DNA from: a virus
Taxonomy: Duplodnaviria; Heunggongvirae; Uroviricota; Caudoviricetes
Virus record (IMG/VR): IMGVR_UViG_2778261569_000015
Coordinates: 1-4,714 of that record
Direction: 5' to 3' (one strand)
Length of the DNA: 4,714 nt
Position 1 is the first letter of the stretch; every line of letters begins with the position of its first letter. A model generated the notes under the pieces. The model worked only from the letters and a program-made list of their open reading frames with translations. It did not search any database and was not told where the DNA came from. Made by a program: the position numbers and the translations under genes. Shown piece by piece: positions 1 through 4,714 of the stretch.

Positions 1-38
1 TGACGGACTTCGGGGGAAAAACGAGTATTTTTAGTCAT
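1..38 (-). CDS. IS3-family transposase OrfA, N-terminal 12 codons only (gene runs off the window)
   Basis: ATG at 38-36 on the minus strand, preceded by GAGGT with 7-nt spacing. Translation is MTKNTRFSPEVR, the N-terminus I recall for IS629/IS1203-type OrfA. Confidence 0.7.
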   Translation of the reverse strand, partial: MTKNTRFSPEVR

Positions 39-92
39 CCTGTTTACCTCTTTCTCAGGGAGTTTAGTCTCCAGGATTTCCGGGGCGGTTCA
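1..92 (-). mobile_element. Left end of an IS3-family insertion sequence (IS629/IS1203-like), continuing beyond the window edge
   Basis: The minus strand from 92 downward reads TGAACCGCCCCGGAAATCCTGGAGACTAAACTCCCTGAGAAAGAGGTAAACAGG-ATG. This is a TG-initiated terminal inverted repeat followed by SD GAGGT and the orfA start, and it matches my recollection of the IS629-group left end. The family call is from memory, not a search. Confidence 0.75.
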
Positions 93-1738
93 CTCCTCTG
101 ACCGCAGGCGGTGCAGATCTTTTCCGGTTCCTGTTGCACTACTGGTTCAGGTTGTTTCGTTTCTGGCTCGTTTTGTTGCGTATTTGGGCTGTTCTGTTCC
201 GCTTTCTGGTCGTTCTGTTCCGTTTCTGGCTGATTCTGGTACACAGAATCGCGGGTCTGGATCCCCTTAATCCATTTCGGATCATTCGGGTCGCTAATCC
301 CTTCAACAAATTCTCCGCGAGAGGCAGCCAGTAATTTGTCTGCATCGACAGGATTTTGGGGCGGAATGTTTTTCCGGGCTTCATGGAGTTCTGCCCGCAG
401 TTTCTGATATTTCGCATCAACAGAATTTATCTGTGGCTGAGCATCCATCGACTGCGTGTCCTGATTATGTTCAGTTGTATCCGGTTCCACTGCTTCAGTC
501 GTTGCCTGTTCATCTGCCATTGCGCCAGATGGCTGCGGTTTTTCTTCATCATCCTGTTTTCCTTCTTTTGTTACACGCTGCGGCATTGGAGCAGAGGAGC
601 GACCGCAGGCAATATCCACGATTTCTGGATCAGGGTTGGCATGGTCGGTTTCGGTCAGTACTTTGTTCAGATATTCGGTAACACGGTGGGGAGTAGCCTC
701 GATACCAATTGGTGCTTCTTTCACGGATGCAACCACTATCGCGCGGGAATAATCCAGGTGACCAGGCATGGCGATGAATTTGTCACGAAAAACAGAAAAG
801 GGCGGCTTATTCTCTGAAACGATTTCTTCAATGCGTTTGGCGTGTGCCGGATGTGGATTGTAAATATCGATGTCCATTGAACGGGCCAGAACGCCAGCGG
901 CAACGTCACGTTCCACTGACGCATCATCGTGGACAAAACCTTCACCGCGATCGGTAAGAATTCCTCCGCCAGCATTAGCGCCGGATGGCGTGCGGCTGAT
1001 GCGTAAAACACGATTTCCTTTCATCCACTCTTTTGTCAGCAGACCTCGATCGGTATAGTCAGCGTCCAGGTATGCTTCGAAAAAAGCAGTCATTAACCCC
1101 AGACTGGAATTAACGGGATTAGGGAAAACTTTGTCTGTGTCGCGTACCAGTTTGTGAAGGTCGCGAATCTCCAGCGGGTCGAGCAGCTTTGTGTTGTGGG
1201 AAATAGCCAGGGCAGTAACAGCAGGCAGTTCTTCAGCTCGTGCGATATGTAATGCCTGAAGTTCTTCCCGTGAAACGTGCGTTACCGGTTTTTCGCTGCC
1301 ATGTTGCGCAAGCCAGCGAATGGGCAGTTCCTGACCGGAAATCGGCAGGAGCATATTATCCTCAATCTCAGCCATGTCTTCGCCATTGACGTTGGTATTG
1401 TCAGTGCTGGCTGGTTTGTCCTGAACTGAGGGGGAAGGCGCTATAAATATCATTGTGATGCCATCTTCTCCGCCTTTTTCATAGCGGTTGCAGAATTCAG
1501 TATCGAACACACCTTCAGGCGGCAGGTCATTAACAATGGGCAAATTCACGCGAACAGGTTTTTTGAAATCCTCTTCGTCAAATCCAGCATCGTCCATTGC
1601 GACAACACCCCGTGATATTGCAACCGATAATTTTTTTGCTGTGCGCCAGTAAAAACCGCCTTTAATCCCAAGGCGTTTTCTGACTTTGTCATTTTTGGCT
1701 TCGTAATACAGTGCAATTTCTTCTTTATCAGTGCTCAT
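44..1738 (-). CDS. Prophage protein of unknown function (564 codons as read), 3' end interrupted by the IS; occupies the position of ydfE in Qin-type prophages
   Basis: Long ORF with SD GAGGT 6 nt upstream of ATG 1738 and about 50% G+C by eye. The last 15 codons ([15 protein letters not shown]) are encoded by the IS terminal repeat (92-47), so the native C-terminus is lost. The native C-terminal ~110 residues are Q/E/P/T/N-rich low complexity. No Walker A or other catalytic motif recognised. Confidence 0.8.
134..250 (-). repeat. Degenerate tandem repeats (~21 bp units such as GTTCTGTTCCG(C)TTTCTGG) inside the 564-codon gene
   Basis: Visible near-repeats at 192-212 and 213-233 with further degenerate copies at 150-190. 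They encode the Q/E/P-rich tail ([32 protein letters not shown]). Confidence 0.6.
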
Positions 1739-1830
1739 TGATAAACCTCATAACTATTTTAAGGTTGTACGAATCCCTGCTATTGCTGGCATGCTTAATC
1801 AACGGGTATGGCGTTAATACGGCTGGCGGG

Positions 1831-2019
1831 TTATCCAGCCGGTATTTCGTTATTCAGGTACAGCGATACTTTGTTTAACGGGAGACATTCACCGGAAATT
1901 TTTTGCTCGTCTCTTGCCTGATGGCAGGATTCTTTACTGGCATAAATTCCGGTAATCACATTCTGTGGCTCACCTGTTATAAGAAAAACCGTCATCATCA
2001 GTGCAAACGCTGAACTCAC
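1831..2019 (-). CDS. ydfD: YdfD-like small lysis protein (62 aa)
   Basis: GTG start at 2019-2017 overlaps the dicB stop (GTGA). The product MSSAFALMMTVFLITGEPQ...EQKISGECLPLNKV...EIPAG resembles my recollection of E. coli Qin YdfD in length, hydrophobic N-terminus and EIPAG end, and it sits in the same position immediately after dicB. Confidence 0.6.
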   Translation of the reverse strand: MSSAFALMMTVFLITGEPQNVITGIYASKESCHQARDEQKISGECLPLNKVSLYLNNEIPAG

Positions 2020-2204
2020 TGCTGCCCTCCGAAAATGCCAAGTTCAAGAAGGGCAATTCTGGAGAGTATGGAATTATCATTGAGAAGATAAGGCTCATAT
2101 TTTCTCATCCTGATGGCGTCTTCAGTAAACTCCCGGTTACTGAGCAGAATACCAATATTAAAACACCCTTCAGACGTATTAACGTTTGGTAGTGACGTTT
2201 CCAT
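2016..2204 (-). CDS. dicB: DicB-family cell division inhibitor (62 aa)
   Basis: Internal start of the 97-aa track ORF: ATG at 2204-2202 with SD GAGGA 7 nt upstream (TTGTTGAGGACGCGATA-ATG). The N-terminal half METSLPNVNTSEGCFNIGILLSNREFTEDAI closely matches recalled K-12 DicB (METLLPNVNTSEGCFEIGVTISNPVFTEDAI); the C-terminal half is divergent. Confidence 0.85.
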   Translation of the reverse strand: METSLPNVNTSEGCFNIGILLSNREFTEDAIRMRKYEPYLLNDNSILSRIALLELGIFGGQQ

Positions 2205-2373
2205 TATCGCGTCCTCAACAATGAATTTTGTGATGCGGTGCCTGGTGCCTCCAGGTGACGTTAACCAGTTAACAATTAACGCCGGATACAGAGAATCCAC
2301 CCATAACACTGTTTTTGGTTTTAACTGTTCCGCGTGCGCTGAGCCGCATTCACCGCATCACAAAATTCACTTT

Positions 2374-2431
2374 AAAAAGGGCGGCAGAGCAGCCACGGAG
2401 TAAAACTGATACCGCCAAACGTCACCAGAAA
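2374..2431 (-). ncRNA. dicF: DicF small regulatory RNA
   Basis: Minus strand reads TTTCTGGTGACGTTTGGCGGTATCAGTTTTACTCCGTGGCTGCTCTGCCGCCCTTTTT, nearly identical to the recalled E. coli DicF sequence, including the 3' GC-rich stem and U-run. It lies between the upstream ORFs and dicB as in Qin. Confidence 0.8.
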
Positions 2432-2767
2432 ACTGATAACAGAGGGCGTTGCAGTGGGGTTGTCACTTAAGCGTATGGTCAACCTGACAACCCGGCGTCC
2501 TCAAGGGGGAACAGAATAACCCCGCCACACTTACCGCCGCGCCATTTCGCGGATTGCCACAACCGGAAGCGCACGGTCGAACTAAATTTAACGACACCGT
2601 ACAGAGAGACCAATTTCGCCGTGCGCTTTCGTGTTATGCCCTGACTTTTCAGGGAAAGAGCCTTTCAGTAAACTGTCAGTACCGGATTCTTATCCGTGTC
2701 CGGCGCACGACCACACGTGACAGCGTGTTGGTCTCCATTTTTAACCCAGCCCTTAATGGAGGATAAA

Positions 2768-3073
2768 ATGCACTCTAAATCAATCAATCGATATTATGTC
2801 CATGTGCAGTTATTTGAAGCAACAATGGAACAGGAGAAAAAGTTCGAGACTCTGATGCCAAATTTTAAATACTCCAGGATGATTAATGAAGGTGACATTG
2901 AATATAAATTATTGCCAGGGGCATACGTTATTCAGTCAACGCTTAATGCGAATCAAATACTTGAACAAACCTTTTCTATTGCTAATTCAGTTGGTGCTAA
3001 TGCTCACATTTTTGTTTGCCCTTATGATGAAAGTGCAACCCTTTTGCCTTGTGCTGATTTTAGCACTTACTAA
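2768..3073 (+). CDS. Hypothetical protein (101 aa), low-GC gene antisense to the operon
   Basis: ATG at 2768 preceded by a strong SD GGAGG (2758-2762, 5-nt spacing). The track ORF 2696-3073 is trimmed to this start. A sampled stretch is about one-third G+C, against roughly half in flanking genes. The 3' end overlaps the convergent ORF 3060-3365 by 14 bp. No recognisable motif or TM segment. Confidence 0.6.
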   Translation: MHSKSINRYYVHVQLFEATMEQEKKFETLMPNFKYSRMINEGDIEYKLLPGAYVIQSTLNANQILEQTFSIANSVGANAHIFVCPYDESATLLPCADFSTY

Positions 3074-3365
3074 CTAAATTTAATTTATGTTCAAGTTCGG
3101 CTATTTGCATACGTAGTGCTTTAACCATTGTTTCATGATAAATCTCACTCACTCCACCTGGGTGTGGGGTGAATTTAGGTGAATCATCTTTGTTTTCAGA
3201 ACTCAGATTCTCTTCGTACAGCTTAATAAAGGAATTACGCACATTATGGGATATATTGTCGATGGTTTCTTTTTCTACGGTACTCAGGTCAAGAGTCGCC
3301 AGTTGGGAACGAACTATATTCGCTGCCATTTCCTGGAATTGCATTGGTAAATCTTTAAATTCCAT
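3060..3365 (-). CDS. Hypothetical protein (101 aa) in the pL-like operon, AT-rich, C-terminal predicted helix
   Basis: Preferred start is ATG 3365-3363 with SD GAGGT 5 nt upstream; the track start at 3377 lacks an SD. It follows the ydfA-like gene with an 11-nt gap. Product begins MEFKDLPMQFQEMAANIVRSQ. Whether it corresponds to ydfB/ydfC of Qin cannot be judged from memory. Confidence 0.6.
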   Translation of the reverse strand: MEFKDLPMQFQEMAANIVRSQLATLDLSTVEKETIDNISHNVRNSFIKLYEENLSSENKDDSPKFTPHPGGVSEIYHETMVKALRMQIAELEHKLNLVSKC

Positions 3366-3376
3366 CGTCAACCTCA

Positions 3377-3529
3377 TCAGTCAGTGTTTCTGGCTAACCA
3401 GCGACGCGCGCCAGCTTCAGTTTTAAACGTTTTGCTTCTGGTATACGTCATCGCGGTAAACGTGCCGTCCAGGTTGGGGAATACTCCGTATACCAGAGAT
3501 TCGTTGTTGCCAAGATTGAGCGTATCCAT
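3377..3529 (-). CDS. ydfA: YdfA-like small protein (DUF1391-type, 50 aa)
   Basis: Internal start of the 82-aa track ORF: ATG 3529-3527 with SD GAGGT 4 nt upstream. Product MDTLNLGNNESLVYGVFPNLDGTFTAMTYTRSKTFKTEAGARRWLARNTD matches my recollection of Qin YdfA and is the first gene after the repressor, as in Qin. Confidence 0.65.
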   Translation of the reverse strand: MDTLNLGNNESLVYGVFPNLDGTFTAMTYTRSKTFKTEAGARRWLARNTD

Positions 3530-3600
3530 GTTGACCTCATTTGCCCTTAACGCCGGGGGGGCGGAACTAAGACCTGTCGCACCGTTGTGCTTTGATGGGA

Positions 3601-3640
3601 TATATTGTTCTCTTAAGATGAACATATGTCAACATTGTGA
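3601..3640 (-). promoter_or_regulatory. pL-like promoter with operator palindrome, driving the ydfA-dicF-dicB operon
   Basis: Minus strand has TTGACA (3632-3627), a 17-nt spacer, then AACAAT (3609-3604). An inverted repeat TGTTC-N9-GAACA (3606-3624) overlaps the spacer and -10. The segment is about 80% identical to the pR-like element at 4126-4165 in inverted orientation. Confidence 0.5.
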
Positions 3641-3653
3641 ATGCGCAAGAGGC

Positions 3654-3675
3654 AAAAAAAACCGCCTTCCGGCGG
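3654..3675 (-). terminator. Rho-independent terminator of the repressor gene (bidirectional in form)
   Basis: Hairpin CCGCC-TTCC-GGCGG (3662-3675). On the minus strand it is followed by an 8-nt U-run (complement of A-run 3654-3661), 22 nt downstream of the repressor stop. The plus strand has a T-rich tract after the stem (tattgttttgt). Confidence 0.7.
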
Positions 3676-3697
3676 TATTGTTTTGTAAAATAAAGAA

Positions 3698-4087
3698 TTA
3701 TTTTTGTCGCGTTATTGGGTCAACGTATTCTGAGTAAAATTCGGTCAGTTTTTGAAGGCGCATTTGAAAAGCTGCCAGCATATTTCTACGCTCTACAGGT
3801 GGCAGGTTTCTGTAAACATCAAGCAGGGCTTTCTCATCATCATCAAGCGCCTCTCTGTTTGTATCTTCTTTTCCTGTCAGTAGCCAGGAAAGGGAAACAT
3901 TTGTCGCTTCTGCAATTTTGGCTGCGGAATCTTTACTGATTGTCCCTCTTTTTTTCCAGGCGTTGACTGATGAGCGTCCTACACCAGCGATGCGCGCTAA
4001 ATCTGAACCGCTTAAATGATGCTGTTGCGAGATCGTATCTAACCTTTCTGCCAGCGGGGTGTCGTATTGCTTTTTTCTCATGTCCAT
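3698..4087 (-). CDS. cI/DicA-like phage repressor, XRE-family HTH (129 aa)
   Basis: HTH segment LSGSDLARIAGVGRSSVNAWKK near the N-terminus, with a C-terminal helical region (ALLDVYRNLPPVERRNMLAAFQMRLQKL) arranged like DicA. Divergent from a Cro-like gene and followed by its own terminator. No SD; a -10 hexamer abuts the ATG. Confidence 0.85.
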   Translation of the reverse strand: MDMRKKQYDTPLAERLDTISQQHHLSGSDLARIAGVGRSSVNAWKKRGTISKDSAAKIAEATNVSLSWLLTGKEDTNREALDDDEKALLDVYRNLPPVERRNMLAAFQMRLQKLTEFYSEYVDPITRQK

Positions 4088-4189
4088 TTAGCAATTATAA
4101 CCGTTCAGTGAACACTAACAATTCCTCGTAGTGTTGACTTATGTTCTCTTTAAGTGAACAATGTTGTGGCTGATTGAATTGGAGGTTGT
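4088..4189. promoter_or_regulatory. Divergent immunity promoter/operator region (pRM-like leftward, pR-like rightward)
   Basis: Minus-strand TATAAT at 4099-4094 ends 6 nt before the repressor ATG. Plus-strand TTGACT (4134-4139), 17-nt spacer, AACAAT (4157-4162). Operator-like palindromes TGTTC-N9-GAACA (4142-4160) and GTTCagtGAAC (4103-4113). SD GGAGG 4181-4185. Confidence 0.6.
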
Positions 4190-4465
4190 ATGACAGCATT
4201 GGACAAGGCAATAAAGATTGCTGGTGGTATTCGTCCGCTAGGGCGTGCAATAGGGGCTTGGCCGTCTCAAATACACAAATGGGCAAATGAATACAATGGT
4301 CGAGTGCCGACAGGGGAGCGGGTTCGTCAAATTTATATTGCAACTGGGGTGACTCCTCATGAATTGCGACCAGATTTATATCCGAATCCAACCGACGGGT
4401 TGCCTGCTGGAGATAAGGCTAACACACAAAATACACCGGAGTTGATTCATGAAAATCAAGCATGA
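4190..4465 (+). CDS. Cro-like HTH regulator (DicC/YdaS family, 91 aa)
   Basis: SD GGAGG 4 nt upstream of ATG 4190. N-terminal AIKIAGGIRPLGRAIGAWPSQIHKW and ...GVTPHELRPDLY fit the Cro/YdaS pattern. It is divergent from the repressor. Confidence 0.8.
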   Translation: MTALDKAIKIAGGIRPLGRAIGAWPSQIHKWANEYNGRVPTGERVRQIYIATGVTPHELRPDLYPNPTDGLPAGDKANTQNTPELIHENQA

Positions 4466-4714
4466 ACACATCCGCATGGCGATGAATGCCTGGGCGCGTC
4501 CTGATGGCGAAAAAGTTCCAGCAGCTGGAATAACCCAGGCTTATTTTGAGTTGGGTATGACGTTTCCTGAACTGTATGACGACAGCCATCCGGAAGCCCT
4601 GGCTCGCAATACCCAGAAAATTTTCCGCTGGGTAGAGAAAGACACCCCTGATGCTGTTGAAAAAATGCAGGCTCTGTTACCGGCGATCGAAAAGGCGATG
4701 CCGCCTTTGCTGGT
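4449..4714 (+). CDS. YdaT-like protein in the cII position, N-terminal 88 codons (no stop within window)
   Basis: ATG 4449 with GGAG 7 nt upstream; overlaps the cro-like gene's last 17 nt. Translation MKIKHEHIRMAMNAWARPDGEKVPAAGITQAYFELGMTFPELYDDSHPEALARNTQKIFRWVEKDTPDAVEKMQALLPAIEKAMPPLL. The MKIKHEHI start and position downstream of cro resemble the Rac YdaT family as I recall it. Confidence 0.65.
   Translation, partial: MKIKHEHIRMAMNAWARPDGEKVPAAGITQAYFELGMTFPELYDDSHPEALARNTQKIFRWVEKDTPDAVEKMQALLPAIEKAMPPLL

Follow-up and report, generated by a model that had tools for sequence, protein, structure and literature searches.

The window analysed here, a 4,714-nt stretch of Caudoviricetes DNA (IMG/VR record IMGVR_UViG_2778261569_000015, positions 1 to 4,714), carries two small convergent genes within a DicB-type early operon. 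It is 100% identical to chromosomes of Escherichia coli O157:H7 and of some O111:H8 strains, where the prophage is lambdoid and an integrase gene beside an ompW remnant marks its boundary. As stated in the original prediction, and in agreement with the listing of open reading frames (ORFs), both genes comprise 101 codons and overlap by 14 bp at their 3′ ends. Sequence comparison identifies the locus as a two-gene convergent cassette of the type of e14 ymfI/ymfJ, diverged and located in a hypervariable antisense cargo position. The central features are the following.

2768..3073, plus strand: YmfI-family gene of 101 aa, running antisense to the early (DicB-type) operon
3060..3365, minus strand: mosaic early-operon gene, 101 aa, in which a linker predicted to be disordered joins module A at the N-terminus to a YmfJ-type helix (module C) at the C-terminus
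3060..3073: 14-bp stretch in which both genes end, from the ORF listing
3204..3365, minus strand: module A, residues 1-54, MEFKDLP...NVRNSFIKLYEE, the conserved N-terminal part common to DicB-type prophages
3081..3173, minus strand: module C, residues 65-95, FTPHPGGVSEIYHETMVKALRMQIAELEHKL, the YmfJ-type C-terminal helix

The listed plus-strand ORF opens at an upstream GTG (2696) that is used by no annotation; from the ATG at 2768 the frame has 101 codons and ends at 3073. On the minus strand, the ATG at 3365 yields 101 codons ending at 3060, and an alternative ATG at 3377 would yield 105. The former start lies 9 nt past the stop codon of the preceding DUF1391 gene, which makes the minus gene part of the early operon. 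The good ribosome-binding sites (RBSs) claimed for the two genes are indeed present, GGAGG (2758-2762) 5 nt before ATG 2768 and GAGG 6 nt before ATG 3365. The Prokaryotic Genome Annotation Pipeline (PGAP) calls exactly these two coding sequences, each as 'hypothetical protein' (WP_000555741.1 and WP_001302871.1), in the 100%-identical O157:H7 chromosomes. The pair is also AT-rich, as had been noticed, with a GC content of 0.356 in the plus ORF and 0.373 in the minus ORF versus about 0.50 in the flanks (0.513 for 2201-2709, 0.494 for the DUF1391 gene and 0.493 for the exonuclease gene). An A-to-G change at 3062, found in a common allele (P0012; L002 4587-4955), abolishes the stop codon of the minus gene, whose product grows from 101 to 122 aa; in the plus gene this substitution amounts to Ser99Gly. 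Where a genome has the G allele, PGAP annotates the longer minus gene alone and omits the intact plus gene.

Long ORFs are to be expected in AT-rich DNA, and an unrelated nested frame of 63 codons is open at this locus too. That one or both genes are mere chance frames of this kind is nevertheless refuted by sequence comparisons, and we give the idea next to no credence. Between the plus gene of the window and e14 ymfI, synonymous sites are saturated (proportion of synonymous differences pS 0.84, of non-synonymous differences pN 0.31), yet the protein is conserved, and homologues occur in several genera. In the 94%-identical O22:H8 relative a deletion of 3 nt leaves the plus frame open, strong RBSs precede both genes, and K-12 has been found to make the YmfJ protein (PMC11002266). 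For the minus protein the database holds 233 relatives, which have the N-terminal ~60 aa alone in common and bear several kinds of tail. Because of the 55% identity to e14 YmfI despite saturated synonymous sites, and because of the 233 relatives of the minus protein, we judge both ORFs to be genuine genes.

The view that neither protein matches a known family does not hold. The plus protein belongs to the YmfI family, with a homologue in K-12, and the minus protein matches PHROGs 6937 and 1363. For the plus protein, NCBIfam NF051477 is matched with E 4.9e-31 (residues 7-94 against profile positions 2-89 of 89) and PHROG 8894 with E 1.5e-35 (profile positions 1-93 of 94), while BLASTP against e14 YmfI gives 55% identity over 92 aa (E 2e-37). 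The NF051477 score of 107.1 bits lies under the NCBI equivalog cut-off of 140; owing to this divergence the PGAP name stays 'hypothetical protein'. By these comparisons the plus protein is a member of a diverged YmfI subfamily, with 39-59% identity to e14-type members. Polar residues that are invariant throughout YmfI are Y10, H12, Q22, Y53, S57, Q67 and C84. The family has very few members: HMMER, run exhaustively against 1.84 billion cluster representatives, returned 8 proteins, two of them (P0009 and P0010) long repeat proteins that we rejected as chance matches driven by their repeats, and no match was found among 50,697 GenBank phage records.

The minus gene is a mosaic. The DNA homology of its module A with the related prophages L006, L007 and L008 begins at 3186, 3192 or 3228 and extends up to 3365 at 88-89% identity. 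Of 5,426 E. coli genomes, 1,358 contain matches to the first ~60 codons of the gene (3186-3365) at 84-89% DNA identity, followed there by several unrelated tails. Module C has 47% identity to the C-terminus of e14 YmfJ; residues 65-95 match the motif TP.P..G..V..[IV]YH[ED]TM[VI]K.L, and T66, P67, G71, Y76, H77, T79, M80, K82 and L84 are invariant. In e14 YmfJ, module C is preceded by a different N-terminal module (B), which also occurs in A+B proteins of other prophages. The original prediction had named homology to ydfB or ydfC as a finding that would speak for conserved core genes of the operon; the minus ORF has no similarity to either Qin YdfB or Qin YdfC.

The strongest evidence for a functional pair, as opposed to accidental neighbours, is the strict linkage of YmfI with module C. 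YmfI loci were collected from the window, O22:H8, L009, e14, Scandinavium, Edwardsiella and 40 IMG/VR contigs, and 42 loci were scored by script. A convergent, overlapping gene ending in module C was present in all 42; the strict motif was found in 39, the other three having IYHETLVK or IFHETMVK. In the reverse search with the motif YH[ED]TM[VI]K, 33 of 33 viral contigs encoded YmfI opposite and immediately downstream, including five that had escaped the YmfI scan. The N-termini of the partners are of at least four kinds, and the overlap in relatives ranges from 14 to 90 bp. Comparing the window with L009, pS is 0.11 for the plus gene and 0.42 for the whole minus gene; the divergence falls mostly in module A and leaves module C almost unchanged. 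The last ~35 residues of the minus gene are inherited with YmfI whatever N-terminal domain precedes them, and the two genes probably work together.

The same linkage could arise passively. YmfI might be a moron of unrelated function, for example a host-physiology or anti-host factor, and module C might be kept only by the 3′ overlap and by frame-preserving junctions at the domain boundary in the minus gene, with no coupling of the two products as protein or RNA. Phage mosaic junctions do often fall at domain boundaries, the 14-90 bp overlap ties the two gene ends together physically, and other cargo genes at this position bring tail types of their own, so that tail plus cargo may be the unit of exchange. 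However, the 14-bp overlap does not reach the conserved core of module C (3081-3173), which nonetheless accompanies YmfI in 42/42 and 33/33 loci across genera. This core persists where YmfI identity is 39-59%, synonymous sites are saturated and the N-terminal partners are of at least four kinds, whereas a non-functional tail of 35 residues would be expected to decay or to be replaced over such divergence. We regard this passive explanation as unlikely, though not lightly dismissed.

Homology of the window with Qin and other DicF prophages runs from dicB through DicF to 2709 and resumes at 3186-3228 inside the minus gene, for Qin not before 3386 (in the DUF1391 gene). Because homology stops and resumes at these points, the YmfI-specific cassette can be placed at about 2710-3185, with a leader of its own, ymfI and the final 40% of the minus gene. 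Thus the proposal of an acquired insert stands as far as the variable accessory position is concerned, but its boundaries of 2768-3365 were wrong. K-12 Qin is without both genes and has ydfB and ydfC. The cassette margins and the cargo genes of other prophages are as follows.

2431..2709: non-coding flank from DicF to the cargo, 86-92% identical to Qin, L006, L007 and L008, and present in all DicF-type prophages including Qin
2710..2767, plus strand: cassette-specific 'type 1' leader of the plus gene, with a hairpin at 2711-2731 and an anti-Shine-Dalgarno stretch (2732-2739) facing the Shine-Dalgarno sequence (2755-2762)
L006 2095-2316: other cargo gene in the same antisense position
L008 2020-2253: other cargo gene in the same antisense position
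L012 about 3299-3574, minus strand: other cargo gene in the same antisense position
L019 2862-3140, minus strand: other cargo gene in the same antisense position

The leader 2710-2767 is common only to the YmfI-type loci L002 (the O22:H8 relative) and L009; for Qin, L007 and L008 homology ends at 2709. Pairing of the Shine-Dalgarno sequence in a leader hairpin is the minimum-energy fold of YmfI-type leaders. As a sequestering device this hairpin was dropped, being no stabler than shuffled sequence (z between -0.5 and 0.0; -0.5 in the window). The wider leader of 151 nt is stabler than shuffled sequence (z -2.8). The 21-nt leader hairpin CCACACGTGACAGCGTGTTGG (2711-2731) recurs in L009 (~3600-3650) as its reverse complement CAACACGCTGTCACGTGTGG, with 20 of 21 nt matching. 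A flipped hairpin with its stem kept points to a structure of importance on one strand or on both.

Other DicB-type prophages with the same flanks carry unrelated small plus-strand genes (73, 77 and 91/92 aa), none of them related to YmfI, so that the cargo between the conserved flanks belongs to at least four unrelated families or is missing altogether. These genes have a second type of leader, which runs up to the ATG (ACCAACCCTCAGGAGGGTGAAATG), and each of them converges on and overlaps an A-module gene bearing its own tail type. The cargo proteins of 73, 77, 91 and 92 aa are of unassigned function; the 91- and 92-aa ones are 28% identical. The suggested comparison of the slot with that of sieB proved apt, given that Rac sieB occupies the same position in the same orientation, converging on the DUF1391 gene ydaF.

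Loci of the e14 type have a leader of their own. This ~75-nt ymfI leader (L003 5424-5490, e14; L015 3927-4000; L018 3927-4005) hardly varies across E. coli, Scandinavium and Edwardsiella despite protein identities of only ~44-55%, and one hairpin in it, GCUGG/CCAGC, shows a compensatory G-C to A-U change. It contains a possible extended -10 promoter (TTTTCA-18-TGgTATGCT), and it matched no Rfam family. In L018, from Edwardsiella anguillarum, a 156-aa protein with long hydrophobic stretches (3387-3857, plus strand) precedes ymfI on the same strand, and a 557-aa ORF of unassigned function (5068-6741, plus strand) follows the pair; both may be further accessory cargo.

The surroundings of the pair bear out the label of a DicB-type operon, with DicF, DicB, DUF1482/YdfD-like and exonuclease genes on the minus strand, the exonuclease gene lying beyond the DUF1482/YdfD-like gene.

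3698-4087, minus strand: CI-type repressor gene
3661-3676: bidirectional terminator hairpin after the repressor gene
3604-3632, minus strand: sigma-70-like early-operon promoter TTGACA-17-AACAAT, from a promoter scan, just downstream of the hairpin 3661-3676
Between the repressor gene and the minus ORF, minus strand: DUF1391/YdfA-like gene
2379-2430, minus strand: DicF small RNA (Rfam RF00039, 75 bits, E 7e-16)
2016-2204, minus strand: DicB gene
1831-2019, minus strand: DUF1482/YdfD-like gene

A Cro/YdaS-like gene is divergent from the repressor gene. DicF is full-length with its own terminator (2396-2381), lies 3′ of the pair within the early transcript and anchors the cargo position on the left; between it and the minus ORF lie about 340 nt of non-coding DNA. 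A match resembling STnc100 (2172-2381), below threshold with 37 bits against a gathering score of 47, extends from just 3′ of DicF into the first dicB codons. In L002, a relBE toxin-antitoxin pair is inserted at 5391-5870 between the DUF1391 gene and the repressor gene, which is a second variable position of the same immunity region.

The promoter at 3632-3604 probably drives the operon from the DUF1391 gene to dicB, and its location implies a DUF1391 start at 3529 (51 aa, the PGAP call) rather than at 3625 (82 aa). Transcription from there runs through the minus gene and then antisense across the plus gene, a layout that agrees with the earlier description of the latter as antisense to the early-left operon. 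Any promoter of the plus gene must lie in the flank 2431-2709. A weak candidate, TTTTCA (2646-2651) and TAAACT (2669-2674) with a spacing of 17, has 8 of 12 matches; these hexamers were read by eye, are below the scan threshold and are conserved in relatives. The single sigma-70-like match that the scan gave on the plus strand, at 2741-2769, was discarded as a plus-gene promoter because it overlaps the ATG and is therefore unusable. No intrinsic terminator is predicted between the two genes, and the next plus-strand terminator after ymfI is the hairpin at 3661-3676, so that a ymfI transcript would cover, in antisense, the early promoter and the 5′ part of its operon.

The missing terminator is in line with the proposed convergent interference, as is the finding that K-12 ymfI-ymfJ and Rac sieB-ydaF form excludons in RNA sequencing data and belong to the core MG1655 set of convergent overlapping transcription units, the 'excludome' (PMC12288877). 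During the SOS response of K-12, ymfJ is among the genes induced late, as are intE and ymfM, at a log2 fold change of 4-4.8 and with its protein detected, whereas ymfI rises only to about 2 (log2) in the same data (PMC11002266); SOS expression of ymfJ as an early gene has a further source (PMC2634741). K-12 ymfJ thus behaves as a repressor-controlled early gene.

The plus protein is predicted to be a soluble alpha/beta protein with the GhoS-like order beta-alpha-beta-beta-beta-alpha-beta. The closest fold to its model is that of GhoS (PDB 2llz), a Cas2-like ferredoxin-fold endoribonuclease; at E<=1e-3 no viral structure in BFVD matched the fold, and a search by sequence found nothing among solved structures. 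GhoS is a type V antitoxin that cleaves ghoT mRNA and is not itself toxic, and among its catalytic residues R28 is reported to matter most (PMC4010927). With two substitutions GhoS becomes a toxin that cuts 50 additional transcripts (PMC4010927), from which it follows that the fold can carry specific or broad RNase activity. We file the plus protein as GhoS-like in its predicted fold, not as a member of the GhoS family, and treat RNase activity as a hypothesis.

Starting from what is shown, namely which genes these are, where the cassette ends, the match in fold and the strict linkage, we infer expression in the lysogen, RNA targeting, binding by module C and a defence phenotype, and put forward the following tentative reading, to which we give somewhat less than an even chance as a whole. 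YmfI would be a GhoS-fold, RNA-acting protein of the lysogen that is switched off at induction by early transcription and by module C. In the lysogen, with the early operon repressed, YmfI would be produced at a low level from its own weak promoter. It would act on RNA, most likely for exclusion of or defence against incoming phage; leaky early transcripts of its own prophage are a less likely target. A role against superinfecting phage is favoured because of the sieB position and because the cargo is hypervariable, as in known prophage defence hotspots (PMC9122126). Once the repressor is inactivated, early transcription would run head-on through ymfI, causing interference and antisense pairing. 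It would also yield the partner protein, whose C-terminal helix would neutralize the YmfI already present, and the prophage's own lytic growth would be spared.

Several observations weigh against this reading of a lysogen-made effector with an induced inhibitor. A sigma-70 scan of the plus strand gave the plus gene no convincing promoter, the strict linkage may in part be a consequence of the physically overlapping 3′ ends, and binding of module C to YmfI is pure conjecture. The AlphaFold2 model of the minus protein is of low confidence (predicted local distance difference test, pLDDT, 59), with a helical hairpin (helices 8-24 and 32-53), residues 55-71 unstructured and one long helix at the C-terminus (72-99), and is too poor for a fold search. 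The structure model of the plus protein was built on five sequences, and the ferredoxin-like fold is common and functionally diverse. PADLOC returned only sub-threshold matches (best E 0.053). The plus protein has no match in Pfam, including the GhoS family PF11080 (gathering score 21 bits), and profile-profile alignment with hhalign was negative against GhoS alone and against a GhoS alignment. In the only consistent, weak sequence register, GhoS R28 corresponds to the nearly invariant (>=90%) Glu27 of YmfI, with a conserved Lys25 nearby; a chemistry identical to that of GhoS is therefore unlikely, and YmfI may bind rather than cut RNA, or may not act on RNA.

In Pfam, nothing rose above noise. 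For a relative with 82% identity (P0003), GhoS is the top Pfam family, below threshold (14.3 bits, E 0.041) and colinear over 75 residues, and the YmfI hidden Markov model (HMM) meets GhoS in the same register with about 5 bits. With hhalign negative and the HMM signals marginal, homology to GhoS at the sequence level could not be established.

GhoS being the closest fold, and the toxic genes for DicB and the DUF1482/YdfD-like protein lying downstream in the operon, YmfI might instead be an antitoxin of the type V kind. It would cleave a toxic early mRNA (that of DicB or the YdfD-like lysis protein, or of YmfH in e14) and stabilize lysogeny until induction overrides it; a plus-strand transcript reaching 3661-3676 would fit, being antisense also to the early promoter and to the 5′ part of its operon. 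We consider this improbable: no GhoT-like co-directional ORF follows ymfI, e14, Scandinavium and Edwardsiella are without dicB or ydfD, and GhoS R28 is not conserved in the only consistent sequence register.

Within ymfI, a nested frame of 63 codons (2886-3077, plus strand, frame +1) with an AGGA RBS encodes a highly hydrophobic peptide, PFLLLIQLVLMLTFLFALMM.... Both the window and O22:H8 keep this frame open; a stop codon interrupts it in L009, and e14, Scandinavium and Edwardsiella lack it. As a GhoT-like toxin it was rejected as an AT-rich, non-conserved artefact, for which T-rich codons probably account. One database protein (P0004) enters this frame through a frameshift.

That the locus is a classical protein toxin-antitoxin pair, with either gene as the toxin, we hold to be very improbable. 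Two small, strictly linked genes, an RNase-type fold and the relBE pair of O22:H8, by which the region is seen to accept toxin-antitoxin cargo, would suit it. Yet the genes are convergent, with different promoters, and do not form a co-directional bicistronic operon; an antitoxin encoded by the minus gene, in an operon silent in the lysogen, could not protect the cell there. Moreover, Pfam, NCBIfam and PADLOC gave no match to a toxin-antitoxin family, and GhoS itself is not toxic (PMC4010927).

A broader formulation of the scheme preferred above, which we think rather doubtful in its full extent, is that YmfI and the YmfJ-type C-terminal helix constitute an unrecognized two-component system. 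A GhoS-fold RNA effector made in the lysogen would exclude phage or silence early transcripts, and a portable inhibitor helix of ~35 residues, grafted onto early proteins, would be delivered only at induction. Head-on transcription would be the second off-switch, and the antisense position between the DUF1391 gene and DicF would be a hotspot of defence cargo with matching tails.

Two features seem to be new here, the GhoS-like fold predicted for YmfI and the obligate linkage of this protein to a portable C-terminal helix. Our literature search found no paper naming both ymfI and GhoS and no functional study of ymfI or ymfJ, mentions being limited to deletion lists and expression tables. For these uncharacterized K-12 y-genes, with relatives in prophages of pathogenic O157:H7, O111 and O22, a GhoS-like fold and an obligate partner module encoded antisense provide a concrete hypothesis that can quickly be tested in K-12. 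If it is true, RNA-directed control of the type V kind would extend past the single example of GhoST, a Gram-negative counterpart to the avoidance of prophage autoimmunity by Tha/Ith would be at hand, and the very common DicB/Qin-type prophages would contain a compact cargo hotspot with four further small gene families. If it is not, the locus is still a clean example of mosaic exchange with a junction inside a gene.

Among known systems, the nearest is e14 ymfI/ymfJ of K-12 (b1143/b1144), with a homologous plus protein, the same convergent overlap beside a repressor gene (ymfK/cohE) and a partner ending in the same C-module. It differs in that YmfJ has N-terminal module B and not A, the leader sequence is another one and no dicF/dicB follows downstream; e14 YmfI also has a C-terminal extension of ~20 residues, coded in an overlap of 63 bp versus 14 bp in the window. 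GhoS (YjdK, of GhoT/GhoS) matches the plus protein in predicted fold, without significant sequence similarity. It is chromosomal, accompanied by a co-transcribed ghoT and has no convergent partner, whereas the window gene is prophage-borne and has no ghoT-like toxin beside it. For Cas2, the fold match is much weaker than for GhoS, and no cas1 or CRISPR array is nearby.

Rac sieB is likewise a plus-strand gene inside the early-left operon, overlapping ydaF and upstream of a small-RNA gene and kilR. SieB is unrelated in sequence and fold, a hydrophobic, presumably membrane protein of 162 aa as against the predicted soluble YmfI type, and the plus protein had no SieB match in Pfam, NCBIfam or PHROG. 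P22 and lambda escape their own SieB by means of the Esc product and an antisense RNA from early transcription, and the circuit proposed here would resemble the SieB/Esc/antisense-RNA circuit of P22.

In Staphylococcus aureus prophages, the lysogeny RNase Tha is inhibited at induction by Ith, encoded in a small gene that overlaps in antisense, and antisense transcription makes the two states exclusive (Rostol et al. 2024, PMC11087260). The plus protein has no HEPN match, and there is no homology to Tha/Ith. The logic is the one proposed here, demonstrated there by experiment and here read from sequence and a structure model. Tha is a HEPN protein expressed from the cI promoter and Ith has a constitutive promoter; in the present locus the arrangement would be reversed, with the effector under its own promoter and the inhibitor in the repressor-controlled operon.

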